NCBI GenBank assembly: GCA_038237845.1
Contig: JBBRYH010000010.1
Span: forward strand, 25,692-89,691
Length of the DNA stretch: 64,000 nt
From: Bacteroidia bacterium
GTDB taxonomy: Bacteria > Bacteroidota > Bacteroidia > Palsa-965
Direction of reading: 5' to 3'
Positions 15,455 to 63,065 of the stretch are shown here, piece after piece. The translations under genes were made by a program, and so were the position numbers. Each line of letters begins with the position of its first letter. Within the stretch, counting starts at the first letter, position 1. The notes beneath the pieces were generated by a model that was given only the letters and a program-made list of their open reading frames with translations, had not been told where the DNA came from and searched no databases.

Positions 15455-15520
15455 TGCGGTAGATTTCGGGTTATTCAAACATAGTGAATAATGGAGGATT
15501 GTAATATGATTTATACCCAA

Positions 15521-16435: not shown

Positions 16436-16527
16436 AGGGGTTTAAAAGTAAATGTAATAAAAGGAACCCAAATTTGTAAGGTACTTCGTGTTATCTTTGA
16501 ATGCCCTTAACACTTAATCATTTTCAA

Positions 16528-18932: not shown

Positions 18933-19054
18933 TAATGGTTAATCAGAAGTCCAATAATATAGGAATTTTGTACTTGCTCAAAGTGCATGGCGATCTATAT
19001 TTGGTCATCAAAAATTTCCCCGATTTCCAAAACCAAAACCAAAAGCATAATTCA

Positions 19055-22000: not shown

Positions 22001-23461
22001 GATGCCAACGGATGTACAACAACTGCGAATACAACTGTAACTAGTGTTGGAGGCCCAACAACATCTGTACAGACAACAACTAACGTTGCTTGTTTCGGGA
22101 ACAACACTGGCGCGTCAACAATTACTGCTAGTGGTAATGGACCACTTACTTACAGTTGGGCACCAATTGGCGGAAATGCGGCAACAGGTGCAAATTTATC
22201 AGCAGGAACATATACAGTCACTGTTACGGATATCAATGGTTGTGTTTCAGCACAAACTGTAACAATTACTGAACCGACTGTTATCGCCCCTTTCACTTCT
22301 TCGAATCCTGCAACTTGTGGTAACACAAATGGTGATGCAACAGTTAGTGTTACAGGAGGCACAGGACCTTATACCTATTTATGGAACAATTCACAAACTA
22401 CCGCAACAATTTCAAATCTTGCAGGAGGTTCTTATAATGTAACTGTAACCGATGCAAACGGATGTACTTCAACTGCAACTGTAAACGTAACTAATACGGG
22501 CGCACCAACAGTAAGTTTGCAGTCATCTTCCAACGTTTCTTGTTTCGGTGGAACAACAGGATCAGCAACAGTCCTTGTAAGTGGCGGATCATCGCCTTAC
22601 ACATATGCATGGTCACCTAGTGGAGGAACAAGTGCAAGTGCAACAAATCTTGGAGCGGGTACTTACACCATTACAGTAACAGGAAGTGATGGTTGTACTC
22701 AAACACAAACAGTAACATTGACACAGCCAACAGCTATTGCATTAACTTCTAATGCCGTTGCTGAAAACTGTGGTTCAGCTGATGGAAGCGCAAGTGTTGC
22801 TGCAAGTGGAGGAACACCTGGCTATACTTATGTATGGAGTAATGCAGCAACAAATGATTCAATTTCAAATCTTTCTGCCGGATCTTATTCTGTAACCGCA
22901 ACAGATGCAAACGGATGTACAACTTCTTCAACAGTTGTTGTTACCAATAACAGCACAGCAGTTGCCAACGCAGGAGCATCCGTTACGATTACTTCTGGAC
23001 AAACAGTTCAATTACTTGGAACAGGTGGCGTAACGTATAGTTGGACACCATCAGGAACCTTATCCTGCAGTAATTGTCAGAATCCGGTTGCCTCGCCTAC
23101 TGCAACAACTATTTATATGCTAACTGTTACAGATTCAAACGGATGTACGGATACGGACACCATCACGGTCTATGTTGACATTGCGTGCGGTGAAGTTTAT
23201 GTTCCAAATGCGTTTTCCCCGAATGGAGATCATCAGAACGATATGTTTTATGTAAGAGGTAATTGTATAAAATATCTTGACTTCTCTATTTATAATCGTT
23301 GGGGCGAAAAAGTTTTCTACACTGCTGATCCGGCAATGGGATGGGACGGAACTTGGAGAAACGTTGCATGTGAAAATGCAGTCTTTACTTATTATTTAAA
23401 AGCCACACTATTGGATGGAACAGAAATCGATCGACAAGGAAATATTTCACTTGTAAAATAA
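19055..23461 (+). CDS. SprB-repeat cell-surface adhesin (about 1469 aa): N-terminal beta-propeller-like region, about 12 SprB repeats, and a T9SS type-B CTD.
   Basis: Signal peptide MKRFLLSLSIFTACFLSGSLDAQ. Repeating units CFGxxNGTATxxxxGGTxPYTYSWxPSGGTxATAxxLxAGTYTxTVTDxNGC. C-terminus VYVPNAFSPNGDHQNDMFYVRG...FSIYNRWGEKVFY. Confidence 0.85.
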   Translation: MKRFLLSLSIFTACFLSGSLDAQMTTFRFTYDVGLFDISGGMVQNPAGEFVFAGINNSFGPYYGDAVKIDASGTVVWAKAYNGGFATNISDIKNVSTGGYIMTGQSSSAGGGALLIRIDNAGAVLWAFKYQLPDKPAANASNEYGNAVIETSDGGFLVGGGVDYFWDGVSPTTTDTTSAMGFKVNSSGVLQWSKVWTIATANPDEHYINDVAESADGYFFVGQSSEGTGTLSSNGDYPSNALIIKTTTAGALTYIRRWGAGNATSQGINAATKLTTGNILLGGFDDVSGFLVSISGVGAAPAVIYNHRLNGALFGSTYLIQDIMECADGNYSIIGTQLVFLSVQLNTMIVKLNSSTGALMFGRTYAPIGLSAILPEGGLCTDQGYYVVMTDQQVGGFNANVIRTNTVGQTNDPASGCPGTSINPTIGTITVTFTTPTSSNFNLAVGSSFSPVVTNLIPVRTQHCFNAPSALSATSTSTNVTCFGGCNGTATATPANGTAPYTYLWAPSGGTAATATGLCAGTYTCTVTDAASVSTTTSVTITQPAATVATISATPIECSTGWAYITVNVTSGVGPYTYAWSPSGGNTNVGQVFVAGNYTCTITNGAGCTSTQSITVVPGPAPTCSITSSSNNLCFGNTNGTATVTASSGMGPYTYSWSPSGGTGATASNLAAGTYTVTVTDFLGCQATSTIVITAPSQLTSTSSQTNVLCNGGNNGTATVAPTGGTPGYTYSWAPSGGTAATASGLAPNTYTCTITDGAGCTTTQNFTITQPTVISASATSTPTGCSTNTGSATCTANGGTGILTYSWAPSGGTAATAINLGVGNYTVTVTDANGCTSTANASIITAGGPTASLQSSSNVNCFGSSTGTASVTASGNSPFTYSWSPSGGNAATANGLIAGGYTCTITDINGCASTQSVLITEPTAIVASASSTPTGCSASTGSATCTANGGTGSLTYSWSPSGGTSATANNLAAGPYVVTITDANGCTTTANTTVTSVGGPTTSVQTTTNVACFGNNTGASTITASGNGPLTYSWAPIGGNAATGANLSAGTYTVTVTDINGCVSAQTVTITEPTVIAPFTSSNPATCGNTNGDATVSVTGGTGPYTYLWNNSQTTATISNLAGGSYNVTVTDANGCTSTATVNVTNTGAPTVSLQSSSNVSCFGGTTGSATVLVSGGSSPYTYAWSPSGGTSASATNLGAGTYTITVTGSDGCTQTQTVTLTQPTAIALTSNAVAENCGSADGSASVAASGGTPGYTYVWSNAATNDSISNLSAGSYSVTATDANGCTTSSTVVVTNNSTAVANAGASVTITSGQTVQLLGTGGVTYSWTPSGTLSCSNCQNPVASPTATTIYMLTVTDSNGCTDTDTITVYVDIACGEVYVPNAFSPNGDHQNDMFYVRGNCIKYLDFSIYNRWGEKVFYTADPAMGWDGTWRNVACENAVFTYYLKATLLDGTEIDRQGNISLVK
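20440..22960 (+). repeat. Array of about 235-nt tandem repeats encoding SprB repeat units (GC-richer, Gly/Thr/Ala codons).
   Basis: Periodic protein repeats. They generate several spurious antisense and alternate-frame ORFs (20483-20890, 21244-21441, 22150-22362). Confidence 0.7.
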
Positions 23462-23494
23462 AGAATTCTAAAAACTTACGTTAAAATTTTTCAT

Positions 23495-24541
23495 ATGAAA
23501 TCGAACATAAATAATTTTCTTGCAGTTGGATTGTTTCTGATTCCTATTTTCAGTTTTGGGCAGGACATTCATTTTTCGCAACTCGACCAGACGCCATTGT
23601 TATTAAATCCTGCTCAAACAGCTTTGTCACATACGGCAATGGGCATTGTGAATTTTAAAGACCAATGGAATAGTGTTAGCAAGACACCTTATCGCACCTA
23701 TAATTTCTGCGGTGATTTGGCCTACGCAAAAAAATCAAATGGATCGCATCTTGGTGTTGGTCTAGATTTATTTTCTGATAAAGCTGGTGATGGAGCCATG
23801 GGCACCACAACAGGACAACTTCATTTGTCGGGTGTACTTGCTGCAAATGATCAGAATTTACTTTCGTTAGGAATTTATGGTGGTTTTGGTCAGCGCAGTT
23901 TAACGTATGATAAACTATTGTGGGATAATCAATATGATGGAAATGCATATAATGCAGCATTACCTTCAGGAGAACCAGGAACTTTTGGAAATCATACCTA
24001 TGCTGATTTCGGTGCAGGACTTGCATGGTTTTATGGGAAAGGTCACTCTACATTATCATCCAAAGACGCGTTGAACTTTAATGCAGGATTTGCATTGCAA
24101 CACATTAATCAACCTGTCTACAGTTTTTATGGAGCAGGCGATTTAAAATTACCGATGAAATTTGTTGCTCATGGAAATGCAGAAATTGGATTGAAAAATA
24201 AAAATATTGTACTCGAGCCATCTTACATCGTAATGTTGCAGGGCGGACATCATGAAATTAATGCAGGGCTCCTATTTAAATATGTTATGCAGGAAGCTTC
24301 ACATTATACAGGAAGAAAAAAGCCTGCCGCTTTTGTTTTAGGTGGATATTATCGTTTCGGCGATGCTGCAGTAATTGCAACCGGATATGAATTTTCAAAT
24401 TACCGAATCGGAATTAGTTATGATGTCAATTTATCCGATCTAAATACCGCAAGTAAATCAAAAGGCGGATTAGAAGTATCCTTACGATTTATGACACCGG
24501 ATCCATTCGGGAAAAGCAGCTCCTCAAAATTATTTGACTGA
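23495..24541 (+). CDS. sprF: Type IX secretion system membrane protein PorP/SprF family, cognate partner of the upstream type-B CTD adhesin.
   Basis: N-terminus FGQDIHFSQLDQTPLLLNPAQTA matches the PorP/SprF signature (QDxxFSQ...NPA). About 348 aa. 33-nt gap to the adhesin gene. Confidence 0.8.
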   Translation: MKSNINNFLAVGLFLIPIFSFGQDIHFSQLDQTPLLLNPAQTALSHTAMGIVNFKDQWNSVSKTPYRTYNFCGDLAYAKKSNGSHLGVGLDLFSDKAGDGAMGTTTGQLHLSGVLAANDQNLLSLGIYGGFGQRSLTYDKLLWDNQYDGNAYNAALPSGEPGTFGNHTYADFGAGLAWFYGKGHSTLSSKDALNFNAGFALQHINQPVYSFYGAGDLKLPMKFVAHGNAEIGLKNKNIVLEPSYIVMLQGGHHEINAGLLFKYVMQEASHYTGRKKPAAFVLGGYYRFGDAAVIATGYEFSNYRIGISYDVNLSDLNTASKSKGGLEVSLRFMTPDPFGKSSSSKLFD

Positions 24542-34529: not shown

Positions 34530-34669
34530 GAGCGTTATTTTTTCTTTTCTATATATATATTTCCCGCTTTCACCTCGACGGCGCTCGGCTTTATCGGGGC
34601 TATTTATTGCATTGCCAATATCTATTTAAAAAAATTAGACTAAATTGCATTACAAACAAAAAAAACATC

Positions 34670-35623
34670 ATGAAAAAAATTTACTCTTTAATAGTATTTG
34701 CATCAATCGGTTTTACAGCGCATAGCCAGTCTTTCTGGACAGAAGATTTCGGAACAGGTTGCAACCAGGGAAATCTTGCTAGCGCATACGCTGGTTCAAA
34801 TGGATCCTGGACAATTGCAAGTACAGGTACAAATGACCCCGACGCAAATCCTTGGTTTGTAAGCGCAACAGAAGCAGGAACTGGCGTTGGCAATTGTGGC
34901 GCTGGTTGCGGTAGTAATTCAACACTTACAAATAGAACATTGCATGTCGGTAGTACTGCTATTCCTGCATTAGGTCTCCCTGCCGATCAAGGCGCATCTT
35001 ACAATGCTGGTGGTTTGTGCAGTAGCTTTGCTATTTGTGTAATTACAAATTCACGTGCAGAATCTCCTGTCATCAATTGTGCAAATAAAACGAACATCAC
35101 ATTAACATTCAATTATTTTGAAAATGGAGATCTTGCAAATGATGATGGCTCTGTTTGGTTTTACGATGGTACAACATGGGCATTATTACAGAATACAGCT
35201 AAAACAACACTCGGCAATTGTGCTCCTCAAGGAAAATGGACAGCAATTAGCATTGTGCTTCCTGCTAGTGCAAACAATAATCCAAATGTGAAAATCGGAT
35301 TTAACTGGACCAATAACGATGATGGTGTTGGAACAGATCCTTCCTTTGCGGTGGATGATATTGCACTTACTCAATCACCATCAGGTATTGCAACTATTAC
35401 AAATAATCAACTAAACGTTGTTGTATTAGCAAATGGCCAGATAACAATCATTCCGAATGGTCAGGCCTACAAAATGCTTGCGGTTTATGATATGGTTGGA
35501 AGAGAAATAAAATTCACACAAACAGAAAATACAATTTCACTCGGCAATACTGCTCCGGGAATTTATATTATCAATTTGGATGTGAACGGAACGCGTGTGG
35601 TGAAGAAAGTAGTTATGAATTAG
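34670..35623 (+). CDS. Secreted T9SS cargo protein with a type-A CTD. Start taken at MKKIYSLIVF.
   Basis: Signal peptide. C-terminus PGIYIINLDVNGTRVVKKVVMN. Confidence 0.7.
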   Translation: MKKIYSLIVFASIGFTAHSQSFWTEDFGTGCNQGNLASAYAGSNGSWTIASTGTNDPDANPWFVSATEAGTGVGNCGAGCGSNSTLTNRTLHVGSTAIPALGLPADQGASYNAGGLCSSFAICVITNSRAESPVINCANKTNITLTFNYFENGDLANDDGSVWFYDGTTWALLQNTAKTTLGNCAPQGKWTAISIVLPASANNNPNVKIGFNWTNNDDGVGTDPSFAVDDIALTQSPSGIATITNNQLNVVVLANGQITIIPNGQAYKMLAVYDMVGREIKFTQTENTISLGNTAPGIYIINLDVNGTRVVKKVVMN

Positions 35624-41330: not shown

Positions 41331-41364
41331 CCGCTTAGGCGGAGTTGATTAGAGATTAGTGATT
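41331..41364 (-). repeat. Copy A of the GC-rich element (read on the minus strand as AATCACTAATCTCTAATCAACTCCGCCTAAGCGG), facing gene 40963-41307
   Basis: 21/25 identity to copy B over AATCAMCTCCGCCTARGCRGAYACC. Confidence 0.6.
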
Positions 41365-41730
41365 TGTTTGTTTTTTTAAATAGTTGATATAACCGTTTAA
41401 TAGCCGAATGCAATTTCCATATTTCATTTTTTGTTTCTGAAATTCCTCCTCTACAATGTAACCTTCATCAAGTGCAACAATCAAATGCTCAAGCGTTTCT
41501 TTTAATGACCCTGCTGACATACGAAGGAATCGGGTATTGTCCTTGAATCCGTATCTGCCATGACCTTCCGCAATGTTTGCAGTGACCGATCGTGAAGATC
41601 GCTTAATCTGTCGAATCAGCTCAAACTTTTCATGTGCAGGAAATTTTTGTGTTAAGATTGAAATCTGTATCCTGAATTCTCTACACAACTTCCAAACCTC
41701 TAATTCTTCAAAGCTATTATATTCTTTCAT
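41356..41730 (-). CDS. Four-helix-bundle protein (23S rRNA intervening-sequence protein / Avd-like family)
   Basis: FPAHEKFELIRQIKRSSRSVTANIAEGHGRY and ...TLEHLIVALDEGYI are diagnostic of TIGR02436-type 4HB proteins. Confidence 0.8.
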   Translation of the reverse strand: MKEYNSFEELEVWKLCREFRIQISILTQKFPAHEKFELIRQIKRSSRSVTANIAEGHGRYGFKDNTRFLRMSAGSLKETLEHLIVALDEGYIVEEEFQKQKMKYGNCIRLLNGYINYLKKQTNH

Positions 41731-42943: not shown

Positions 42944-44137
42944 CTACTGATTTATTGCTTCAATGCCTGGTAAAGTTCCGGCTTCAATATATTCCAATAA
43001 AGCACCACCGCCTGTTGAAACGTAACTTACTTTTTCAGACAAATTATATTTATTAATTGCGGCTACTGAATCACCACCGCCAATTAATGAGAAAGCTCCT
43101 TTAGCGGTTGCAGCTACAATAGCATCCGCAACTGATTTTGTTCCGCTTGCAAAATTCTCCATTTCAAAAACCCCCATCGGACCATTCCACAAAATTGTTT
43201 TTGAATTTGAAATTACTTCTGCATAAATCTTTTCTGTTACAGGTCCAATATCCAATCCCATCCATCCATCTGGAATTGATTTCACATCGCAAGTCTGAAT
43301 ATTCGCATCATTTGAAAAATTATCTGCACAAACAGCATCAACAGGAATATAAATATTGACACCACGCTTTTTTGCAATTTCTAAAATGTTCAACGCATTC
43401 GGAATTCGATCTTCTTCTACCAATGATTTTCCGACTTTGCCACCTTGCGCTTTCACAAAAGTAAATGCCATTCCTCCACCGATAATTATGTTGTCCGCTT
43501 TATTTATAAGCTGTTCAAGTATTAAAATTTTATCCGAAACTTTCGCACCACCCATAATTGCAGTGAATGGTTTTGTCGCTCCATGTAAAACTTTTTCTAC
43601 ACTCGAAAGTTCTCCCGACATCACAAATCCAAAACATTTATTTGCCGGAAAAAATTTAGCAATTACAGCGGTAGAAGCATGTGCACGATGAGCGGTTCCA
43701 AATGCATCATTCACATAAAAGTCACCAAGTGTTGAAAGCTGCTTTGCAAATGTTTCATCGCCCTTTTCTTCTTGCTTGTGAAAGCGAAGATTCTCCAACA
43801 ATAAAACCTCACCAGCTTTTAAATTATTCGAAGCAATGGTTGCCGGACCGCCGATACAATCACTTGAAAAATGAACAGTTATTCCTCCCAGTAATTCTGA
43901 AAGGTGATTCACTAAATGTTTTAAAGAATATTTTTCTTCCGGACCTTCTTTGGGTCGACCTAAGTGCGACATGAGAATACAGGATCCACCATCACCAAGA
44001 ATTTTTTTAATTGTTGGAATCGCAGCACGCATACGTGTATCATCTGCAATGTGAAACGATTTATCAAGAGGAACATTAAAGTCCACACGAATTAATACTT
44101 TTTTACCTGCGAAATTAAAATCGGCAACTGTTTTCAT
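42944..44137 (-). CDS. pgk: Phosphoglycerate kinase
   Basis: [14 protein letters not shown], 397 aa, Gly-rich nucleotide-binding loops. Confidence 0.95.
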
Positions 44138-44293: not shown

Positions 44294-44309
44294 TTAGACA
44301 TTTGTCTAA
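44294..44309. promoter_or_regulatory. Perfect inverted repeat TTAGACA-tt-TGTCTAA, 30 nt upstream of the sdpR-like gene. Candidate operator overlapping the promoter; a TAtcTTTG -7-like box lies at 44320-44327.
   Basis: Read directly. ArsR/SdpR autorepressors bind such dyads. Confidence 0.55.
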
Positions 44310-44338
44310 TTATACAATTATATTATATCTTTGACCCA

Positions 44339-44623
44339 ATGAACGCATTATTTAAAGCTTTAGACGATCCGACGAGACGCCAGATTCTGGAACTGCTCAG
44401 AGAAAAAGATAGGACTGCAGGGGATATTGCAGATGCTTTCACAATTAGCAAACCAAGCATCTCACACCATCTCGATTTATTACGTCAAGCGAATCTTGTG
44501 ATTTCGATTAAGGAAGGCCAATTCGTCCGCTATTCTTTAAATACAACCGTTTTTGATGAACTGATCGGATGGGTTATGAATTTATCAGATAAGAAAAACA
44601 CAAAACGAAAAAATAAAAAGTAA
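44339..44623 (+). CDS. sdpR: ArsR/SmtB-family winged-helix autorepressor, SdpR-like
   Basis: LDDPTRRQILELL...AGDIADAFTISKPSISHHLDLLRQANLV. 1-nt overlap (TAATG) with the downstream SdpI-like gene. Confidence 0.8.
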   Translation: MNALFKALDDPTRRQILELLREKDRTAGDIADAFTISKPSISHHLDLLRQANLVISIKEGQFVRYSLNTTVFDELIGWVMNLSDKKNTKRKNKK

Positions 44624-45291
44624 TGAAAACAAAAGACTTTATTAAACGAGAATGGTCGATGTGGTTGTTGATTTTAATTCCAACCGTTTTTGCAATAATC
44701 AACTGGAATAATTTTCCTGATAAAATTCCTACCCATTGGGATATTAATGGAGACGTAAATGATTACGGTGGAAAATGGGCGGTCTTCCTTGGACCAATGA
44801 TCGGAACGGCAATGTATTTTCTGATGATCGTTCTGCCGAAAATAGATCCGCGCAAAAAAAATTATGATTTGTTTAGCGGCGCATATTGGATGATCAGAAT
44901 TGGAATAATTCTTTTAATGTCCATTATCGGAATTGTAACTGAACTGGTTTCGCTGGGCTATAAATTGGATGTGGGCATGATCGTTCAATTGGCGGTACTT
45001 GGCCTTTTCCTTTTAATCGGAAATCAAATGGGAAGAATCCGTCCGAATTATTTTGTTGGAATCAGAACTCCTTGGACCATTGACAATGAAGAAGTGTGGA
45101 CCAAAACACATCGTTTGGCGGGAAGAATTTGGGTCGGAACATGTTTGGTTTTAATGCTTGTTTTGTTTTTTATTCCGGTAAAAATATTTGCAATAATTTT
45201 CTTTGTTTCAATTATTACGATGTCTGTTATTCCGTTGGTCTATTCCTATTTGTTGTACAAAAAAATAAAAGCGCAACATACTTCAAATTAA
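44623..45291 (+). CDS. sdpI: SdpI/YhfL-family membrane immunity protein (DUF1648 + SdpI domains)
   Basis: IRPNYFVGIRTPWTIDNEEVWTKTHRLAGRIWV is the SdpI signature. Six TM helices. Confidence 0.75.
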   Translation: MKTKDFIKREWSMWLLILIPTVFAIINWNNFPDKIPTHWDINGDVNDYGGKWAVFLGPMIGTAMYFLMIVLPKIDPRKKNYDLFSGAYWMIRIGIILLMSIIGIVTELVSLGYKLDVGMIVQLAVLGLFLLIGNQMGRIRPNYFVGIRTPWTIDNEEVWTKTHRLAGRIWVGTCLVLMLVLFFIPVKIFAIIFFVSIITMSVIPLVYSYLLYKKIKAQHTSN

Positions 45292-45323
45292 TAGTTCACT
45301 AGAGGGTTATTGCCACAAAGACA

Positions 45324-45339
45324 CTCCGCCGCGGCGGAG
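45324..45339. repeat. Perfect 16-bp GC palindrome CTCCGCCGCGGCGGAG, flanked by direct CACAAAG repeats. Shares the TCCGCC core with the GC-rich element.
   Basis: Read directly. Unusual in an AT-rich intergenic region. Confidence 0.6.
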
Positions 45340-45442
45340 GCACAAAGAAAGGGAGACTCTTTAGAAAATACCATAGCCCAATAACATGAATCTAAGAGTT
45401 GACTAATCACCAAAACTAATCATCAATCACTATCTTTATAAT

Positions 45443-46856: not shown

Positions 46857-48281
46857 ATGGGATGTGGTAGTTGTTCGACTAACGGCCGAGGCTGTAGTAC
46901 AGAAGTAAATGGTGTCCCTGGCGGATGCAAAAGCAATGGTTCCTGCGGTTCAGGAGGTTGTAACAAACTCAATGTTTTCGATTGGTTAGCCAATATGGAA
47001 TTACCAAACGGACAAAAACCTTTTGATTTGGTTGAAGTCCGTTTTAAAAACTCAAGAAAAGAATTTTTCAGAAACGTGAACGATCTTCCCCTTCAAATGG
47101 GAGAAGTAATTGCTGTGGAAGGTTCTCCTGGGCATGATATAGGAACCGTTTCCTTAACAGGAGAATTGGTAAAAACCCAACTCATTCGCAAAAACGTTAA
47201 AGCGGAAGATCCTGCCATCAAAAAAGTATATCGTAAAGTGCGTTCGTTGGATGTTGAAAAATGGTTGGAAGCACAAGGACTGGAGCAAGACACGATGATG
47301 CGTTCACGAAAAATTGCATCGGATATGGGCTTGCGCATGAAAATTTCCGATGTAGAATATCAAGGAGATAAAACAAAAGCAATATTTTTTTACACCGCAG
47401 AAGAGCGAGTTGATTTCCGTGAATTAATTAAAGTGCTTGCTGAACAATTCAAAGTAAGAATTGAAATGCGTCAGATCGGTTCTCGTCAGGAAGCTGCACG
47501 TTTAGGCGGAATAGGTTCTTGTGGTCGTGAGCTTTGTTGTTCAACATGGCTTTCAGATTTCCGTTCAGTTACAACTGGCGCCGCACGTTATCAGCAACTT
47601 TCCTTGAATCCATTAAAGCTTGCTGGGCAATGCGGAAAATTAAAATGTTGTTTGAATTATGAATTGGATGCGTATCTCGATGCGTTAAAAGAATTTCCAG
47701 AACCACAAGATGTAGAAACTGTTCGAGGGAAAGCACGCCATCAGAAAACAGATATTTTTAAAGGAGTTATGTTTTTCACTTTTGCAGATGAACCAGATCA
47801 GTTTCTTCCTGTACCTGCTCGTCGCGTGAAAGAAATTATTGAAATGAATAAGCGCGGTGAAAAACCGGATGAGTTAGGTGTTCTTAAAACACAAAAAGAA
47901 ATTGAAGCAGTAGATGAACCCGATTTTGAAAATGTTGTTGGACAGGATTCATTGACGCGTTTTGATCAGGCAAAACGCAGCAAGAAAAAGAAGAAGAAAA
48001 AAGGGCCTGCCGGAGAAAATTCAAATCCGAACGCACAACAAACAGGAACTCAACAACGTTCTCCTCAACAGAGACCACAAGGACAAAATCCGCAAGGACC
48101 GAACGCGAATCCAAATCAGAATCGCCCACGTCCAAATCCGAATCAACAAAATAAACCGGCGAATCCGAATCAAAAACCGAATCCAAATCAAAACAGGAAT
48201 CGACCGCCACACAGAAAAGATAACAGTGGACCGCCAGCACCACAAGCACCACCGCACAATACACCGCCACCAACTGTTTAG
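46857..48281 (+). CDS. ricT: PSP1 C-terminal-domain protein (RicT/YaaT-like) with a Cys-rich N-terminus and a long Q/P/N-rich C-terminal tail
   Basis: FDLVEVRFKNSRKEFFRN...GEVIAVEGSPGHDIGTV is the PSP1 domain. holB-yaaT synteny as in Bacillus. N-terminus MGCGSCSTNGRGCST...GGCKSNGSCGSGGC. Confidence 0.8.
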   Translation: MGCGSCSTNGRGCSTEVNGVPGGCKSNGSCGSGGCNKLNVFDWLANMELPNGQKPFDLVEVRFKNSRKEFFRNVNDLPLQMGEVIAVEGSPGHDIGTVSLTGELVKTQLIRKNVKAEDPAIKKVYRKVRSLDVEKWLEAQGLEQDTMMRSRKIASDMGLRMKISDVEYQGDKTKAIFFYTAEERVDFRELIKVLAEQFKVRIEMRQIGSRQEAARLGGIGSCGRELCCSTWLSDFRSVTTGAARYQQLSLNPLKLAGQCGKLKCCLNYELDAYLDALKEFPEPQDVETVRGKARHQKTDIFKGVMFFTFADEPDQFLPVPARRVKEIIEMNKRGEKPDELGVLKTQKEIEAVDEPDFENVVGQDSLTRFDQAKRSKKKKKKKGPAGENSNPNAQQTGTQQRSPQQRPQGQNPQGPNANPNQNRPRPNPNQQNKPANPNQKPNPNQNRNRPPHRKDNSGPPAPQAPPHNTPPPTV

Positions 48282-48282
48282 T

Positions 48283-48759
48283 ATGTACAGGTTTCTCATT
48301 TTTGTTGGATTGATTTTTTCATTGGTAAATTTTTCATCATGCGATAAAAATCGTTTGTATGATGAAAATCGTGATGTGAAAGATGGTGTTTGGGATATTA
48401 AACAACAATTGGTTTTTGATTTTGATGTTCCCGATTCGGTAACGAAATACAATTTCTATTTCAACATTCGCAATACCGATGATTATCCTTACAGCAACAT
48501 TTATGTTTTTTTCAAAACAACTTTTCCTAATGGAAAAACCGGAATTGACACCGTTGAATTTCCACTAGCAGATGAAAATGGAAGATGGTATGGAAAAGGA
48601 CAAGGAGATGTACATGATTGTCGCTTAGTTTTCCGACAGGGCGTTCGTTTTCCATTAGCAGGAAAATATCACATGGAAATTCAACAAGCCATGCGAATGG
48701 AACAATTGCCCGGTGTCATTAATGCAGGAGTCCGCATCGAAGAAGCAGAGAAAAAGTAG
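48283..48759 (+). CDS. gldH: Gliding motility lipoprotein GldH
   Basis: MYRFLIFVGLIFSLVNFSSCDKNRLYDENRDV...YPYSNIYVFF, 158 aa, lipobox FSSC. ATG lies 2 nt after the ricT-like stop. The listed 265-aa ORF is an alternate-frame artefact upstream of 48283. Confidence 0.8.
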   Translation: MYRFLIFVGLIFSLVNFSSCDKNRLYDENRDVKDGVWDIKQQLVFDFDVPDSVTKYNFYFNIRNTDDYPYSNIYVFFKTTFPNGKTGIDTVEFPLADENGRWYGKGQGDVHDCRLVFRQGVRFPLAGKYHMEIQQAMRMEQLPGVINAGVRIEEAEKK

Positions 48760-54054: not shown

Positions 54055-56016
54055 TTGTCGAAAGAATATTTTCATATGAATTCAATTCGCAATTTGACAA
54101 ATCTACGCAGTCTTGTAAAAACAACTTTCAGAAAAATAATTAGTCGCTGGTATTTAATTGTACCGGCGATTTTACTTTTTATTTATGTAGCAATTCGTGC
54201 ATCTCGACTTTCTATCACTTGGGATGAAGCCAATACTTTTTTCGAATATGTACGTACTCCGCGCTGGCTGCCGGAAAGCTACAATTACATCTCTGCCAAC
54301 AATCACCTGCTGAACACGTGGCTGATGAAAGGCTCCGTTTTCCTGTTCGACGAAAGTGAATTTGCTTTACGTCTTCCGAATGTTATCGCGGGTGGATTTT
54401 ATTTTTACGCGGCTGCCCTGCTCGCAAAATGTATTGCGGAGAAGCGCTGGCAGATCTTTATCGCTTTTATTTTATTATGCGCGAATCCTTTTGTGCTGGA
54501 TTTTTTCAGCGTCGCGCGCGGCTATGGAATTTCAATCGCACTGCTGATGCTTGGAATTGTGCAGATCACAAAATATGTTTTCAGAAATCAGCAAATCAGC
54601 AATGGAATTTATGCACAGCTTTTCTTAGCACTCGCCGTTATCGCCAACCTTACACTGCTCCACGCGATGCTGGCCGTTTCTTTTATATTGATGCTGCACC
54701 GTTTTATTTTTCATCGCACGGAGCATCCTACACGCACAATAATGCTCTTTTCAATTATTCCTTTCTCAACGCTGCTCCTGCTTGTTCCTTACTTCATCAA
54801 GCTGAAGAACGCCGGGGCCTTTTTTTACGGCGAAGAAGTAAAATCTCTTGGCGATACATTCCTGTCCTTATCCAAAGCTTCGGCATATTACACTTCCTAC
54901 AGTTATATCCTGGCTCCTGTAATGACGGTGCTTGTTGCCGCCATTCCGCTGATCACGGTAATTCATGTCATGCGAAATCCTTTGACCGTGATGAAAGACA
55001 CGCGGGGAAAATGGCTGGTGTTTATCACGCTCTTGTTATTTTTTACCATCGCCGGACCAATGTTGCAGCACTTGTTTTTCGGAACCAACTTTCTTTCCGG
55101 GCGCACAGCTTTATTTTACATTCCACTGATCAGCCTGAATTTTTTAGGAGTGCTGATGCTGCTTCCCAATCGGTTGAAAAATATTCTGCTGATGCTGGCA
55201 GGAACATTTTCAATCACCCATTTATGTTTCGCGGCTAACACCCGTTTTACGTACGACTGGAAAGAGCAGGCTGATGTAAAAGATGCGATGATGGAATTAA
55301 AAAAGAGGAACATCCCGGTTGCGGAAAATTGCTTCGCTGATATTCTTTCGACCGACCTTCCTTATGAAAAGCAGGTCAATTATTACCGGATGCGATTTGA
55401 AATGAATAACTATTCGCATGCAGCAAGAAATGAAAGTGTGCCCATGTGCAGCAGCTATTATCTGGACAAAAACGGGTACCGCAATCGCGAACAGGAAACA
55501 AAACACGCAGAACCGATCTGTAGTTTTTCGATGAGCAGCACCTGGCTCTTTTATTTTCCTCTTGAAAGGATGAAGCTAAAATTACACTCCGTGAAAGAAG
55601 TCTGGCAGGATTTTGAACATGAAGACCCTTATCTTGAATTAAAAACGGACACTATTTATTTCGGCGACAAGGGAACATTTGCAAATGCAGAACATCCATA
55701 CAGCATCAGTGTGCCGATAGAAGTTCCCGATTCGGTAAAAGGAAATCTCGTGGCGACAATGAATTGCAGATTATATTATTACACGAGAAATACTTCAGCG
55801 CTGTTGGTTTTCGGATTTGATGATGGCGGGACAGAGACTTGGGAAGCAATGCATATTACAGAATTGCCTGAAAAACCCGGAACATGGTCCATTACTTCAT
55901 GGACGCGCCCTGTGCCTGCAGGAACAAAAAAAGTGCGGGTTTATATTTGGAATTATGATAAAATTCCGGTGCTGATGGATAATGTGACGGTGCGATTGCT
56001 TGCTTATGGACAGTAA
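54055..56016 (+). CDS. ArnT/PMT-like GT-C-fold glycosyltransferase (653 aa): N-terminal polytopic membrane domain with a DE first-loop motif plus a C-terminal periplasmic beta-rich domain. Compositionally GC-rich.
   Basis: LSITWDEANTFFEYV (DE motif), FALRLPNVIAGG (GT39/83-like). Paralog of 58278-59954. Confidence 0.65.
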   Translation: MSKEYFHMNSIRNLTNLRSLVKTTFRKIISRWYLIVPAILLFIYVAIRASRLSITWDEANTFFEYVRTPRWLPESYNYISANNHLLNTWLMKGSVFLFDESEFALRLPNVIAGGFYFYAAALLAKCIAEKRWQIFIAFILLCANPFVLDFFSVARGYGISIALLMLGIVQITKYVFRNQQISNGIYAQLFLALAVIANLTLLHAMLAVSFILMLHRFIFHRTEHPTRTIMLFSIIPFSTLLLLVPYFIKLKNAGAFFYGEEVKSLGDTFLSLSKASAYYTSYSYILAPVMTVLVAAIPLITVIHVMRNPLTVMKDTRGKWLVFITLLLFFTIAGPMLQHLFFGTNFLSGRTALFYIPLISLNFLGVLMLLPNRLKNILLMLAGTFSITHLCFAANTRFTYDWKEQADVKDAMMELKKRNIPVAENCFADILSTDLPYEKQVNYYRMRFEMNNYSHAARNESVPMCSSYYLDKNGYRNREQETKHAEPICSFSMSSTWLFYFPLERMKLKLHSVKEVWQDFEHEDPYLELKTDTIYFGDKGTFANAEHPYSISVPIEVPDSVKGNLVATMNCRLYYYTRNTSALLVFGFDDGGTETWEAMHITELPEKPGTWSITSWTRPVPAGTKKVRVYIWNYDKIPVLMDNVTVRLLAYGQ

Positions 56017-56099
56017 GCATTAGTTATCTAAAGCCTCACTCAGAATATTGAGAAAAGTCTGGTGATATTGCTATTACCCATCTTATATTCGCATTTGAA

Positions 56100-57897
56100 A
56101 TGAATAAACGAATGCGAAATTTTAAGCAGTTAGTGGTCAGGAATCTGATGGTAATTTTTTTATTGGCAACTGCTTTCGTAGCGTTTTGTGCTTCGTTTGA
56201 TAGAATGGGAGTGAATGAAGGATGGAGACGAACAGTTTTCATGGATGGTCGTGGTTACTATTCTTATCTGCCGGCACTTTGTATTTATAACGACCCTTCC
56301 TGTTCGTTTTATTCCAAGCAATCAGCAGCACAGCCCGACTCCGCGAATTTCATGAATAAAGTTGATGGGAAAACTTGTCAATAAATATTTTGTAGGTGAA
56401 GCATTGTGTCAGGTCCCTTTTTTTACACTTTCCCATTTGTATGCAAAGTTATTTGATGAAGAAACAAACGGCTATTCGAAGCCATACCAATATGGTGTTG
56501 GAATCGCTGCTGTGTTTTATTTTTTGCTGGGATTGTTTTTCCTCTGGAAATTTTTGAAATCCTTTGAATTCAGGATTGGTGTAATTCTGTTCGTATGTGT
56601 GTGTGTAGCCTTTGGGACGAATCTTTTTTATTATGCGGTTTATGAACCATCCATGGCACATGTTTACTCCTTTTCTTTTATCACAGGATTTTTATTCTTT
56701 ACCCGCTCATTTCTCTTATCACCATCAGGAAAGGGAATAATTATTATCGCAGCGTTTACGGGAATGATTACATTGATCAGGCCGGTTGATATAATGATTG
56801 TTTTTGCTTTTCCTTTTCTTGCAGGAAATTTTGAAAATTTAAAAAATGCAATGGGTTGGATGAAGAAACATTTACTCTTTCTTGTTCCCGCACTTGCGCT
56901 TTTTCTTTTAATTGTATCCCTTCAGCTTTTGCTTTATTATTGGCAAACAGGTCATTTCTTCCTATGGAGTTATCAAAGTGAAGGATTTGATTTTGCTCAC
57001 CCGCATATTTATAGAACGCTTTTCAGCTATGAGAAAGGCCTTTTTATTTATACTCCGATTGCATTTGTTTCGCTTTTCGGATTGTTAGTAATGCCTTTTC
57101 GTTCACGCTATTTATTCCTCACATTACTTCCTGTACTTGGGATCATTGTTTTTGTCGTTTCTTCATGGCACGACTGGAGATATGGATTTTCTTTTGGATT
57201 GCGGGCATATATCGAATTTTACGCATTATCTGCTTTTACTTTGGCCTACCTGATTGATTTTGCTTCAAAGCGAAGAATTATTTTCGCTTTTACAGGATTG
57301 ATTTTTTCAGCACTGATTAGTTTCTATTTAATCCAGCAATATCAATTTAACCATCGGATCTTGCACCCGGGGTCAATGAATAAAGAACGGTATTACCTTG
57401 TTTTTCTTCACACTGAAAAAAAGTACGAAGATACTTTATCGCGAATTCCTTATGTGATGGAATCCGAAGGGGATTTTAATGACATGGAAGGCTCTGTTGA
57501 TTGGCCGGGACTTGAAACCATTAAAAAGGGCCTTTCTCATTCCGGGGAGGCTGCTTCACGCATTGATTCCGCTTCACCCTACTCGGCTGGTTTTTGTCGT
57601 AGCATGTCGGATGACGATTTTAATACACCTTCAACAATCAAGATCTCAGCCTGGGTCTTAAGAAAAAACGAGAACGATAATGGAAGTATAGGGATTTACC
57701 TAACAAGTAATGATAGTGTTTTGTTCTCGAAAGATATTGATCTCAACGAGCTTACCAAAACAGGTGCATGGACCAATGTGAAGCAAGAAATAATTATTCC
57801 GGCAAGAAAAACGGAGCGTGAATATTTAAGGGTTCTTTTTTTTCACAGCAGCGGAACAACTTATATTGATGACTTTTCTGTAGAAATTGTGAAATAA
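56100..57897 (+). pseudogene. GT-C-like polytopic membrane protein (paralog of 35961-37283) disrupted by a +1 frameshift in an A4 run at 56370-56373
   Basis: Frame 1 ...DGRGYYSYLPA...NFMNKVDGKTCQ*. Frame 2 resumes GKLVNKYFVGEALCQVPFF, homologous to GKIIDKYFSGVAVLQLPFF of the intact paralog. Deleting one A restores DGKLVNKYF. Confidence 0.55.
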
Positions 57898-57964
57898 AGA
57901 AGCCAAAATTGACTGGACTTCTTTATTTCACAATCCGAGTAGTTATCCGAAGACCTAAGCCTGT

Positions 57965-58255
57965 TTATTGATTAATGTACTTTGAAATTTTAATGTTCCC
58001 ATTAACATTGCTTCTTATAAAATAAATCCCTTTGTTTTCTGTAGTGATATCCACATCTATTTCTGACGATGATGTAGTTGCTTCGTAGACAATTCTGCCA
58101 GCTATATCAAATACTGTGATGGAATTTATTTCTTCTCCACTGTTAGAAACAATTTTGAATTGTCCCGAACCGGGATTGGGATAGATTGTTACATCGTTTT
58201 GTACAATTGAATTTGTTTCCGGGGGAATAACATTTGCAGGTTCTGGATTTGCCAT
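57965..58255 (-). pseudogene. Orphan T9SS type-A C-terminal sorting-domain fragment with no cargo or signal peptide
   Basis: ...TIYPNPGSGQFKIVSNSGEEINSITVFDIAGRIVYE...GIYFIRSNVNGNIKISK is a complete Por_Secre_tail, but nothing precedes it. Confidence 0.5.
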
Positions 58256-58277
58256 ACGGTACAAGTATGCACCACAT

Positions 58278-59954
58278 TTCGGTGAAAGTGAATTTGCTTT
58301 GCGCTTACCGAATGTTTTGGCAAGTGGTATTTATTTTTATGCCTCCGCCGCTTTAGCAGAAAAACTGACCAAGAAGAAATGGCAGGTCATGATTATTTTT
58401 CTCTTATTGAGTTTGAATCCTTATGTGCTTGATTTTTTCAGCCTCGCACGGGGATATGGTATTTCTATTGCGATGATGATGCTCGGCATTTTACAAATTA
58501 CAAAGTACATTCTAGGGAATCACGAAATCAAAAATGGAATGTATGCGCAACTCTTTTTTTCTGCCGCCGTCTTCGCAAACCTGACGATGATTCATGTTTT
58601 GCTGGCATTCTCATTCTTATTGGTGATCAATCGTTTTGTTTTTCATCGTAATAACAAAATGCTACGTGCAGGACTCCTTTTTTCTGCAATTCCATTGAGC
58701 ACCCTGCTCATTTTGATTCCTTACCTGAATCATATGAAAGCTGCCGGAGCATTTTTTTATGGAGAAGAAGCAAAATCATTAGCCGATACTTTTTTATCGC
58801 TGTCGAAAGCAATGTCGTATGACCGCTTCTATGACAAACAGCTAACCCCTCTGCTAACGATTTTGTTTTCGGCTATTCCTCTCATTTCAGTGACTTATGC
58901 CATGCGTAATGTAAGTACGGTAATGAAAAGCGGGCAGGGGAGATGGTTGGTGTTTATTACGTCGGCCTTGTTTTTTACCATCGCCGGACCGATGTTACAG
59001 CATCTGCTTTTCAAAACAAATTTTCTTTCCGGAAGAACAGCTTTGTTTTATATTCCGTTGATCGGATTGAATTTGATCGGATTGATGATTTTATCTCCCA
59101 TGAAATTGAAAAATGGCTTGTTGATGCTCACGGGATTATTTTCTATCATTCACTTTTCTTTTTCGAATAATTACTACTTCAGTTATGATTGGAAAGAACA
59201 GGCTGATGTGAAACAAGCTATGATTGATTTGAAAAAGGAAAATATCCGTTTGACGGACAACTGCTTCGCGAATATCCTTTCAACAGATTTACCTTTCGAA
59301 AAACAAATTAATTATTATCGGATGAGATTGAATCTGGCCAATTTCTCTCATGCTGCTAGGAGAGAAGAAGTGGCTGCCTGTAGTAGTTATTATCTGGACG
59401 TCGACGGACATGACAGAGTGAAGGCCGCAAATAAAAGTCGGTACTTAAAAAACATTCACGACTATTCTGTGAGTGGGACATGGCTGTTTAATTTTCCTGT
59501 ATTGAAAAGTTCTCCGACATTGAACCTTGTCACCGAAGTCTGGCAGGATTTCGAACACGAAGATCCTTATCTCGAATTAAAAACAGACACGATTTATTTT
59601 GGTAATAAAGGAACATATGCGAATAACATTCATCCATTCAGTATTGGTGTTCCGCTCAATATTCCGGATTCCGTAACAGGAAATTTGGTGGCGACAGTTA
59701 ATTGCCGATTGTATTATTACACAAGAAATACATCTGCATTGCTAGTTTTCGGGTTTGACAATGGGAATGCTGAAACTTGGGAGGCCATGCACATTACGGA
59801 ATTGCCTGAAGGACCAAAAACCTGGAGTATTACTTCATGGACCAGACCTGTTCCTTCTGGCACTAAGAAGATCAGAGTTTACCTATGGAATACAGACAAA
59901 ACTCTGGTGTTAATGGATAATGTAGCCTTACGATTGCTTGTAGATGCAAATTGA
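58278..59954 (+). pseudogene. 5'-truncated, AT-rich paralog of GT-C gene 54055-56016. Homology begins at FGESEFALRLPNV; the N-terminal ~100 aa including the DE-motif loop are absent.
   Basis: Alignment with paralog A. Upstream sequence is the antisense of the CTD remnant. The only in-frame start is a TTG at 58299. Confidence 0.5.
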
Positions 59955-60746: not shown

Positions 60747-63065
60747 ATGAATTTCAAACACACATTTGTAAGAGTTTTCAGCGACAAAGGATTGTTGCTC
60801 ACACTCTTTTTGAGTTTACTCATGATGTTATTGTTTTATGGAAAACTCTTATTGCATCCGGGTCATACTTATTTTGGAGCGCAAGGCGATGGCATGCAAA
60901 TTTATTACGAGACACTTTTTCATATTAAATTTGATACGGCTTGGTGGTCACAAAACAGTGTAAATTATCCTTACGGTGAAAGTATTTTCTTTACCGGCGC
61001 AATGCCTTTCGTAAATAACCTGGCAAAACTTTTCGGAACTTCAGCCGGCCCACTTGGTGTAGCAATCATTAATTTGATGATGATTTTTTCGCCGGTGATT
61101 GGGGCGCTTTTTATTTACGCCATCTTTCGTCATTTGCGTTTGCCTTGGCATTATGGCGGAGTGTGTGCTACTTTCATCGCTTATCTTTCTCCGCAATTGT
61201 TGCGGATGTATGGACACTATTCTTTGCAATGGGTTTTTCTCATTCCTGCAATGTTTTATTTATTACTTCGGTTTTATGATCAGCCGAGTGTACTAAAAAG
61301 TTTTACAATTGCATTTCTTGTTTTTTTAGGCGCTTCTACACATTTATATTTTCTGGCATTCTTTGGCGCAATCGGCGGAGCTTATTGGGCGATTTTGTTT
61401 TTAACCCGAGACAGAGGCTTTGGAAGATTTACTTATGTACTCAAACATGCAGGAATTCAATTTGTCTTGCCAGTTCTGATCCTGCAAACTTTAGTAATTA
61501 TGTCGGACCATGTTGCAGACAGAACCATCGCTCCTTGGGGATTCCTTTTTTATCATTCTAATTTTAGCGGCGTATTTTTCCCTTCAGGAAAAATATATGA
61601 AGAATTTTTTAGATTATTCAGCACTCCTGAGAATGTCGATTTAGAAGGAATTGCTTATGTAGGAATTGCCGCAATTATTGGATTCATTACCATTATTATT
61701 ATCCAACTAGTCCGCTTGTTCCGTGGGCGTGTTAAACTCTTTTTAGAAGTAAGCGATAATAAAGTTCTCAATATATTTTTCTGGACTTCACTTGTTATGT
61801 TATGGTTTTCATTTGGACATCCGTTCGTTGGATCGCATGAGGACTGGTTGCCTTATCTTGGTCCGATACGACAGTTTCGTTCTGTTGGTCGCTTTACTTG
61901 GGTCTTTTTTTATATCATAAATATTATTGCAGTATATCGATTGTATAAAATTGTACAGCAACGAAAGGTAATTTCTTATGCAATTATGTTACTAATATCT
62001 TCTCTTCTTTTTATTGATGCTTATTCACTTAATAAAGAAATGCAGGATAAATTCAATAATCATATTTCTGCTTTGGATGATGAAATGAATTTGTTGCCTG
62101 AAAATGCTTGGATGAAAAATTTCAATGCTAAAGAGTATCAAGCCATTTTACCTTTGCCATACTTTCATATTGGTTCAGAAAATCTCTGTCGCCCTTCTCC
62201 GGATGCGAAAATTGTTCAATGGAGTTATGTCGTCTCATTAAAAACAGGACTTCCTTTAATGGGAGTTGCTTCTGCTAGAGTTTCATTGGGACAAACAGCC
62301 AATATGGTGCCACTAGTTTTGGATCCGATTTTACCGATACCGGTTTTAAAAGATATTAAAGATACACGTCCATTATTGATTGTAGTAAGAGAAGAATTAT
62401 TGGATGAATTCGAAAGAAAAATACTTTCATTTGCAAAGCCTATTGGTACTTCGACTAATTATAAAATCTATTCCTTAGACCCTGCTGCATTGCGAAGTTT
62501 GCCTGAAATGCGTTACAATGAAATCAAATCGAGTTATGTGGCCTCTAAACATTTCTCATCAGGAGTTTTTTCAACAACGGATTCAGCAGCTTTTTTCATT
62601 TATCATTCTTTTGATCATTCGAAAAATAAAAATGCCTATAGAGGAGATGGAGCATACGAAGGAAAAATAATAGACAACAATGTCATATTTGATAGTACAA
62701 TTTCTATTCCTGGAAATTACGTAGGTTCTTTCTGGTTTAATAATATGGACGGTGATATTTATCCGAGAATGACCATTGAGGTTTTTTCAACTGATCCAAG
62801 TGATAAAGTAAAACCATTTTACTTTTATTCGAATGCAAGTGTGCAAACAAAAGCAATGGATGGACATTGGGGCCTGATAGAATTCCCACTGACTGTAGTG
62901 GCTCCGAATGGACATGTCAAAGTAACCGTGTGGAACCGAGAAATGAAAAAGATAGACGTTTTTCAAATTGATGAATTATTAATTCGCCCTGCAACAACTG
63001 ATTTATATTTACTAATAGGTGATACTATTATCAGAAACACAAGAACATATTTTCCACACAAATGA
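60747..63065 (+). CDS. Large polytopic membrane protein (772 aa) with a periplasmic C-terminal domain. Candidate GT-C glycosyltransferase playing a YfhO/ArnT-like role.
   Basis: N-terminal motif GAQGDGMQIYYETLFHI. About 12 TM helices. Soluble C-terminal half ending ...IDVFQIDELLIRP, like other cluster members. 4-nt gap to the upstream GT2 and ATGA overlap with the downstream GT2. Confidence 0.55.
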   Translation: MNFKHTFVRVFSDKGLLLTLFLSLLMMLLFYGKLLLHPGHTYFGAQGDGMQIYYETLFHIKFDTAWWSQNSVNYPYGESIFFTGAMPFVNNLAKLFGTSAGPLGVAIINLMMIFSPVIGALFIYAIFRHLRLPWHYGGVCATFIAYLSPQLLRMYGHYSLQWVFLIPAMFYLLLRFYDQPSVLKSFTIAFLVFLGASTHLYFLAFFGAIGGAYWAILFLTRDRGFGRFTYVLKHAGIQFVLPVLILQTLVIMSDHVADRTIAPWGFLFYHSNFSGVFFPSGKIYEEFFRLFSTPENVDLEGIAYVGIAAIIGFITIIIIQLVRLFRGRVKLFLEVSDNKVLNIFFWTSLVMLWFSFGHPFVGSHEDWLPYLGPIRQFRSVGRFTWVFFYIINIIAVYRLYKIVQQRKVISYAIMLLISSLLFIDAYSLNKEMQDKFNNHISALDDEMNLLPENAWMKNFNAKEYQAILPLPYFHIGSENLCRPSPDAKIVQWSYVVSLKTGLPLMGVASARVSLGQTANMVPLVLDPILPIPVLKDIKDTRPLLIVVREELLDEFERKILSFAKPIGTSTNYKIYSLDPAALRSLPEMRYNEIKSSYVASKHFSSGVFSTTDSAAFFIYHSFDHSKNKNAYRGDGAYEGKIIDNNVIFDSTISIPGNYVGSFWFNNMDGDIYPRMTIEVFSTDPSDKVKPFYFYSNASVQTKAMDGHWGLIEFPLTVVAPNGHVKVTVWNREMKKIDVFQIDELLIRPATTDLYLLIGDTIIRNTRTYFPHK

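Follow-up and report, generated by a model that had tools for sequence, protein, structure and literature searches.

The 64-kb stretch of DNA analysed here (hereafter the window) carries an ordinary two-gene operon of the widespread and named SdpR/SdpI family, in which the gene of a repressor, sdpR, is followed by that of its membrane partner, sdpI. Read as a whole and along the lines of the published model for SdpR and SdpI of Bacillus subtilis (PMC2910880), this operon is probably autorepressed and released from repression when SdpI captures SdpR, and SdpI may in addition protect the membrane.

The sdpR-sdpI locus and its neighbourhood

Pfam scans of the ORFs identified the window as part of the chromosome of an uncultured member of the Bacteroidota, encoding T9SS sorting domains, SprB repeats, PorP/SprF and GldH; among public sequences it is closest to a MAG from uncultured Flavobacteriales (locus L001). 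The features of the locus are compiled in Table 1. The two genes overlap by 1 nt within the string TAATG, where the TAA stop codon of sdpR (44621-44623) and the ATG of sdpI share position 44623, just as the initial annotation had described it, and this tight coupling points to co-transcription. Upstream, pgk (42944-44137, minus strand) is divergent from sdpR, and a spacer of 201 nt is common to both genes.

Table 1 Features of the sdpR-sdpI locus, in positions of the window
Feature	Position	Strand	Basis
Core of the putative SdpR operator, perfect 7-2-7 palindrome TTAGACA-tt-TGTCTAA, TTAGACAttTGTCTAA	44294..44309	.	conserved motif
Putative Bacteroidota -33 element TTTG, operator centre	44301..44304	+	sequence, 21-nt spacing to -7 box
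Flank TTATACAA, candidate degenerate third half-site	44310..44317	.	family consensus wTATCTAA directly after palindrome
Putative sigma-A -7 box TATCTTTG (TAnnTTTG)	44326..44333	+	conserved in L001, L007, L097, L098, L099
sdpR, 94-aa ArsR-type winged-helix repressor, SdpR family	44339..44623	+	NF033789, HTH_5
sdpI, 222-aa six-helix inner-membrane protein, DUF1648 + SdpI domain	44623..45291	+	Pfam, AlphaFold2
Possible operon terminator, stem-loop 3' of sdpI	45299..45364	+	GC palindrome CTCCGCCGCGGCGGAG (45324-45339), perfect

The gene order (cvpA) - lipoprotein - pgk / sdpR - sdpI - holB - PSP1 - gldH was seen in at least six Bacteroidia genomes, in all of which the pair keeps its place between pgk and holB and no signs of mobile elements were detected around it. 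Because this order recurs, sdpR-sdpI is here a vertically inherited core locus and not an island. Besides the window, five further lineages share it (L001, L007/L008, L097, L098 and L099), with PGK proteins 81-90% identical to that of the window; in L098 further ORFs lie between pgk and sdpR. The stem-loop downstream of sdpI (RNA fold of -23 kcal/mol, z = -3.15) is unique in the window. Since it has no T-run on the plus strand and is missing at the same place in L001 and L007, its role is uncertain.

The repressor and its membrane partner

The assignment of the first gene to the ArsR family, and within it to SdpR-like proteins, was upheld by profile searches. The NCBIfam model NF033789 (repress_SdpR) was matched over its full length (1-79 of 79) with 125 bits against a cut-off of 100, and the Pfam domains HTH_5 and HTH_20 reached 59.9 and 47.1 bits, respectively. 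SdpR also exceeded the cut-off of the general model NF033788 (metalloregulator ArsR/SmtB; 86 vs 55 bits), a model that describes the fold and not metal sensing. Its structural neighbours in the PDB were all of the ArsR/SmtB type, e.g., SrnR, CzrA and SmtB, with SrnR of Streptomyces griseus as the best solved structure (PDB 7p6f, E = 8e-13, residues 4-68). Like 53 of 60 family members, SdpR contains no cysteine, and it has only two histidines, both within the conserved S-H-H-L recognition helix, while its C-terminal tail is rich in lysine. The metal-site patterns familiar from the ArsR/SmtB family, that is an alpha3 Cys pair or an alpha5 His/Asp/Glu site, were not found in the protein. The lack of cysteine and of such patterns argues against SdpR being a classical metal sensor.

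SdpI was found to possess the SdpI/YfhL domain PF13630 at residues 139-208 (76.1 bits against a gathering threshold of 28.2), so that the profile search on which the initial annotation had made its SdpI-family membrane protein depend did reveal the domain; the signature IRPNYFVGIRTPW occupies residues 139-151. The N-terminal part contains DUF1648 (residues 15-61; 59.5 vs 28.7 bits). An AlphaFold2 model of the protein (pLDDT 86.6) displays six long helices (3-26, 51-74, 85-110, 117-138, 156-180, 186-220), with residues 35-49 forming a beta-hairpin. Applied to this model, the positive-inside rule makes both termini and the loops 75-84 and 139-155 putatively cytoplasmic. Both of these loops are K/R-rich and stand out in column identity, with 0.82 in loop 2-3 (75-84) and 0.77 in loop 4-5 (RPNYFVGIRTPW, 139-155) compared to 0.34-0.55 elsewhere, and in the modelled topology they would be consistent with a conserved surface at which the strongly conserved SdpR docks.

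In syntenic relatives SdpR is 80-94% identical, and hence conserved about like PGK or more, whereas SdpI reaches 52-80%; this difference matches the K/R-rich loops being the best conserved parts of SdpI. The idea that SdpI evolves unusually fast, drawn from its 52-80% in comparison with 81-90% for PGK, was dismissed, as comparable divergence is seen in GldH (42-54%) and in the adjacent lipoprotein (52-73%), so that SdpI is not exceptional among envelope proteins. SdpI matched no transporter family and no sequence in the PDB, in which its family is not represented by a structure, and with the model as query Foldseek retrieved no entry below E = 0.9, the TM-scores being at most 0.38; a PDB analogue as a lead to its mechanism was not obtained from this fold search. 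A role in anti-phage defence was considered as well and rejected, for among the PADLOC models SdpI had zero matches and SdpR matched only generic winged-helix parts (Csa3, CARF HTH).

Operator and promoter

The perfect dyad that the initial annotation had placed about 30 nt upstream of sdpR was recovered 29 nt from the ATG, and within the 64-kb window 44294-44309 is the only site within two mismatches of TTAGAYAnnTRTCTAA. This consensus was searched in the 150 nt 5' of sdpR in related loci, which provided 56 distinct regions, with shuffled upstream regions as control. With at most two mismatches it was present in 47 of the 56 regions, as opposed to 1.1% of the shuffled ones, and 24 regions contained it in perfect form, while 610 kb of related loci yielded one site with at most one mismatch away from sdpR upstream regions and no more. 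The wider consensus reads atAT-TTAGAYA-tT-TRTCTAA-aTAt. As seen in the position matrix and the anchored upstream listing, an extra TATCTAA or TGTCTAA often follows 1-3 nt 3' of the palindrome; the corresponding stretch at 44310..44317 is invariant in the window, L001 and L007 and might be bound as a third half-site.

The syntenic relatives (L001, L007/L008, L097-L099) have the operator at a distance of 28-29 nt to the ATG; L007, L098 and L099 show the perfect form, and L001 and L097 differ from it by two changes. The Bacteroidia group has kept an invariant block of about 55 nt that extends from the operator to TAnnTTTG, whereas the remaining spacer between pgk and sdpR has diverged. Judged by this distribution, the palindrome is the predicted conserved repressor site of the SdpR family, and autorepression of sdpR-sdpI through it is very likely. 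As to further members of a regulon, neither the window nor the flanks of related loci contained a second operator-like site. In the papers searched, neither the operator strings nor a mapping of the SdpR operator nor the consensus TTAGAYAnnTRTCTAA was found.

Concerning the promoter, the initial annotation was right in that the dyad overlaps a putative promoter, but the boxes had to be replaced: they are predicted to be a -33 TTTG and a -7 TAnnTTTG element, not the -35 and -10 boxes of a sigma-70 promoter. The candidate TAGACA-18-TATATT, which emerged from a sigma-70 scan, was set aside, the host being a member of the Bacteroidota. Promoters of Bacteroides and Flavobacterium carry a TTTG element at -33. 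In the window, TAnnTTTG ends 5 nt 5' of the ATG, a distance shared by L001, L007, L097, L098 and L099. The same string is the sigma-A -7 box of flavobacteria, at -12 to -5 in Flavobacterium psychrophilum (PMC9723704). With TATCTTTG as the -7 box, the start of transcription is therefore predicted around 44338, i.e., 0-2 nt before the ATG, and the mRNA is probably almost leaderless. As the TTTG in the centre of the palindrome sits where a -33 element is to be expected, 21 nt upstream, an SdpR dimer on the palindrome would occlude this element, if the assignments taken from the conserved geometry hold. In related loci with promoters of the sigma-70 type, TTGACA-17-TATAxT abuts the left arm, and the -10 box is adjacent to the motif or overlapped by it.

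Toxin genes and known systems

Toxin genes were sought at several levels. Among the non-shadow ORFs of at least 110 aa in the window, which comprise housekeeping, gliding and T9SS and cell-wall genes as well as unknowns, Pfam detected no SdpA (PF17418), SdpB (PF05090, HTTM) or SdpC (PF26137, Toxin_SdpC), and an NCBIfam scan of the unassigned ORFs gave no SdpA/B/C either. When three independent SdpA/B/C sets (Bacillus chromosome, B. thuringiensis pCT281, S. simulans plasmid) were compared by tblastn with the six-frame translation of the 64-kb window, the best E-values were 3.8 and 5.2. The description of the pair as an orphan without sdpABC, given in the initial annotation, thus holds for the window, but it is not a peculiarity of it. 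With the same queries, nothing convincing was found within about 5 kb of any of 88 loci of SdpI relatives, and since none of the 88 has sdpABC at this distance, toxin-less SdpR-SdpI pairs are the norm. These loci consisted of four from genomes, found by a genome-contig search with a single protein, four from exact-protein look-ups and 80 from metagenomes, found with an alignment; in about 62 of them sdpI comes directly after an sdpR of the same orientation. Some distant relatives carry a further gene behind sdpI, which encodes a CPBP/Rce1-like protease in 5 loci and a secreted alpha/beta hydrolase in 11.

For comparison with a toxin-linked system, the Bacillus assemblies GCA_050017575.1 and GCA_002278635.1 (L100/L101) were used. 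Their locus is arranged as opu - sdpR (90 aa) - sdpI (207) - sdpC (203, PF26137) - sdpB (323, HTTM) - sdpA (158, PF17418) - opu, an order that matches B. subtilis 168, and its SdpR, named ‘sporulation delaying system autorepressor SdpR’ by NCBI, is 57% identical to SdpR of the window. For SdpI the identity to the Bacillus protein is 30% over 197 aa. Upstream of the Bacillus sdpR, TTATACAaaTATCTAA and then TGTCTAA (TTATACA-aa-TATCTAA-a-TGTCTAA) are located downstream of a TATAAT box and ahead of the ribosome-binding site. Because this site, the only one of its type in 10.3 kb, is one mismatch away from TTAGAYAnnTRTCTAA, the palindrome of the window can, by its sequence, be placed in the operator class of the toxin-linked Bacillus locus, a locus type with characterised autorepression. 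Both systems share the tight coupling of sdpR and then sdpI, the two protein families, the S-H-H-L helix and the half-site class TRTCTAA, and in SdpI of L100, which is of similar length (207 vs 222 aa), DUF1648 and the SdpI domain are combined as in the window. Unlike the Bacillus locus, the pair in the window lacks sdpC, sdpB and sdpA and resides in a diderm host of the Bacteroidota within a conserved housekeeping neighbourhood. Its putative operator covers the -33 element of a -33/-7 promoter with a probably leaderless mRNA, whereas the Bacillus operator is downstream of the -10 box.

Orphan pairs have already been named in cultured Firmicutes, where PGAP lists an ‘autorepressor SdpR family transcription factor’ next to an ‘SdpI family protein’ on a Clostridium butyricum megaplasmid, on p03BB102_179 of Bacillus cereus, in C. 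estertheticum and on pSA-01 of Staphylococcus arlettae. These are likewise two-gene units without sdpABC, with SdpR proteins 46-62% identical to that of the window, and in C. butyricum and B. cereus a TTAGA-type palindrome precedes sdpR. In contrast to the chromosomal pair of the window, which is syntenic in Bacteroidia, they are plasmid-borne, and S. arlettae differs in its half-site class, TACTTAA, and its S-Q-H-L helix. For Bacteroidetes, SdpI homologues with six TMS were reported from Flavobacteria bacterium BBFL7 and Robiginitalea biformata (cluster 10), and SdpI homologues were found to be often paired with homologues of SdpR/ArsR (Povolotsky et al., 2010; PMC2910880). By their description these proteins share phylum and length class (216-217 aa) with SdpI of the window, and six TMS are predicted for them too; the paper, however, defined no operator and contained no analysis of Bacteroidetes operons. 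With ArsR/SmtB metalloregulators such as SrnR (7p6f), SdpR shares the winged-helix fold class, but it differs from them in having no metal-ligand residues, a membrane-protein partner and another specific family model.

Mechanism and alternative readings

Repression, membrane capture and protection are proposed by homology with SdpR/SdpI of Bacillus subtilis. An SdpR dimer would bind the 7-2-7 palindrome and, more weakly, the flanking half-site, overlapping the -33 element of the sigma-A promoter, and bound SdpR would keep transcription of sdpR-sdpI low. SdpI, once engaged by a membrane-acting cue, would capture SdpR at the membrane; the operator would be freed and more SdpI produced, and the extra SdpI may also protect the membrane. 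Against this circuit it has to be considered that SdpI shares less than a third of its residues with its Bacillus counterpart, that promoter elements and transcription start are predictions and the loop topology is modelled, and that in a diderm host an external peptide would first need to cross the outer membrane. SdpI of B. subtilis is the only characterised SdpI (PMC11995493). Its signal is SdpC, which is absent in the window. An exogenous membrane-active peptide as ligand is a suggestion by homology, and a cue from inside the cell, or a general one of the envelope, would accord just as well with the fixed housekeeping position.

Such a cue leads to the alternative that the same circuit operates without toxin immunity, as a core-genome sensor of the envelope or membrane state in which SdpI is mainly a signalling protein and the cue is endogenous, be it a lipid or proton-motive-force perturbation or a self-made metabolite. 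This alternative is possible, albeit rather unlikely. It agrees with the position of the pair alongside housekeeping genes in at least six Bacteroidia genomes, with the lack of toxin genes at all 88 related loci and with the model of SdpI, in which the conserved surface is the putative cytoplasmic one and not the outward-facing hairpin. Furthermore, TrpP of Corynebacterium belongs to the SdpI family, and its phenotypes have no connection with toxins (PMC11995493). On the other hand, the sole characterised member of the family confers toxin immunity, and a protease or hydrolase gene follows sdpI in distant relatives. CPBP proteases are linked to bacteriocin immunity. The characterised precedent and these neighbours weakly favour a theme of peptide defence.

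Two further explanations were weighed against the autorepressed operon with SdpI capture. SdpR could be an ordinary metal- or thiol-sensing ArsR/SmtB repressor and its membrane partner an efflux or tolerance factor, for which the score with NF033788 and the nearest solved structures could be put forward. However, the specific SdpR model outscores the general one, SdpR, in a family mostly devoid of cysteine, has none and carries its only two histidines in the S-H-H-L helix, and SdpI resembles neither a transporter family nor a solved structure, which renders this explanation very improbable. Even less credence can be given to the palindrome being an incidental symmetry or part of the divergent pgk promoter. 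The region is indeed AT-rich and the 201-nt spacer serves pgk too, but the motif tracks sdpR and not pgk: it recurs in unrelated synteny, including Firmicutes plasmids and the Bacillus chromosome, and in L098 it is still found 5' of sdpR though other ORFs part the two genes. An incidental origin is also at odds with its frequency in front of sdpR compared to shuffled regions and with the near absence of such sites elsewhere in the 610 kb.

Relevance

The locus by itself matters little, as automated annotation already names both genes; SdpI homologues in Bacteroidetes and their frequent pairing with SdpR/ArsR were known as well. The novelty is modest and comprises the family-wide operator consensus, its placement relative to the -33/-7 elements in Bacteroidota and the finding that toxin-less, vertically inherited pairs are typical. 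The consensus offers a testable operator for the SdpR family that is common to the toxin-linked system of Bacillus and to toxin-less pairs in several phyla, and the stable toxin-less pairs in core genomes raise the question of what is sensed without SdpC. The geometry of operator, -33, -7 and ATG, conserved in Bacteroidia, would amount to a compact, probably leaderless and repressible promoter, which might be worth trying for genetic work in Flavobacteriia. More speculatively, and on balance doubtful, toxin-less SdpR-SdpI could be a phylum-spanning device for ‘repressor capture at the membrane’ with TTAGAYA-nn-TRTCTAA as its shared code, of which Bacillus cannibalism would be a specialised offshoot, and the Bacteroidia pair would then be a vertically inherited core sensor of the membrane state instead of an immunity gene.

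A second kind of site was observed outside the window. SdpR genes with an S-Q-H-L helix (B. thuringiensis pCT281, S. simulans, S. arlettae) are preceded by TTAAGTA/TTAGGTA-nn-TACTTAA palindromes. Because of these TACTTAA-type palindromes, the SdpR family appears to have at least two operator specificities, which do not divide along the line between toxin-linked and toxin-less pairs. A division by operator class into orphan (S-H-H-L, TRTCTAA) and toxin-linked pairs (S-Q-H-L, TACTTAA), the latter represented by the B. thuringiensis and S. simulans loci, had been considered and was abandoned, as the Bacillus sdpRI-sdpCBA locus combines S-H-H-L with TATCTAA/TGTCTAA. In front of the pCT281 sdpR the palindrome extends, without a mismatch, over 30 bp.

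Operator classes and genes downstream of sdpI

The SdpR family possesses a second operator class, which was seen upstream of sdpR in the loci L090, L091 (3950-3980) and L095 and differs from the operator at 44294-44309 in the window. It reads TTAAGTA/TTAGGTA-nn-TACTTAA and precedes the genes of SdpR proteins with an S-Q-H-L instead of an S-H-H-L recognition helix, which come from B. thuringiensis pCT281, S. simulans and S. arlettae; in pCT281 it takes the form of a 30-bp perfect palindrome. The split between both classes does not coincide with toxin linkage. An sdpRI pair without annotation was found in the Bacillus sp. N5-665 record L096 (NZ_CP093325.1, PLSDB), where a TTGACA-17-TTAATAT promoter is followed by TTAGATAaaTATCTAA plus TGTCTAA upstream of the pair. 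This record is filed as 'plasmid p1', spans 5.5 Mb and lists only 25 features, and looks like a chromosome placed among plasmids.

In distant relatives a third gene of one of two kinds recurs directly 3' of sdpI. In 11 metagenome loci (L023, 5669-7051, and ten others) the gene at this position encodes a secreted alpha/beta hydrolase (about 460 aa), and in C. estertheticum (L093, 4980-5975) a shorter one of about 330 aa; a CPBP/Rce1-like intramembrane protease was detected there in five loci (L042, 1359-2300, and four others). Neither kind occurs in the window. Here the sdpI stop is followed, after 33 nt, by a perfect 16-nt GC palindrome, CTCCGCCGCGGCGGAG, embedded in a longer stem that folds as RNA at -23 kcal/mol (z = -3.15). 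The palindrome has no second copy in the window and was not found at the equivalent place in the syntenic Bacteroidia loci L001 and L007; the stem-loop may be a lineage-specific insertion, and perhaps serves as a terminator without a T-run.

Further features of the window

Features of the window by position
Feature	Position	Strand	Remark
HC2-like and DksA/TraR protein	6868-7569	-	233 aa
SprB-repeat adhesin, then PorP/SprF	18935-24541	+	1508 aa, CHU_C T9SS signal (adhesin)
23S rRNA intervening-sequence protein family gene	41356-41730	-	PF05635, four-helix bundle
Stem-loop downstream of sdpI	45299-45364		core 45324-45339; RNA fold
PSP1-domain protein	46857-48281	+	
gldH	47962-48759	+	longest reading frame
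Four large ORFs	54055-59954, 60747-63065	+	653, 511, 551, 772 aa

Within the conserved neighbourhood of sdpRI, the PF05635 gene has a counterpart in L007 and was not found in L001. The PSP1-domain protein carries a long C-terminal tail rich in Pro, Gln and Asn, which the longest gldH frame overlaps in a different frame, so that the true gldH start probably lies near 48.28 kb.

Elsewhere, the 233-aa protein has a low-complexity N-terminal region resembling histone H1 (HC2) and, at its C-terminus, a DksA/TraR C4 zinc finger. The adhesin and PorP/SprF are a typical pair of gliding and T9SS cargo, and several other T9SS-tail proteins are encoded (1082-4525, 13715-15520, 16501-17397, 34607-35623). 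For the four large ORFs Pfam gave nothing at E <= 1e-5. Genes for family-2 glycosyltransferases lie between them, and the set may represent a cluster, as yet uncharacterised, for an envelope polysaccharide.
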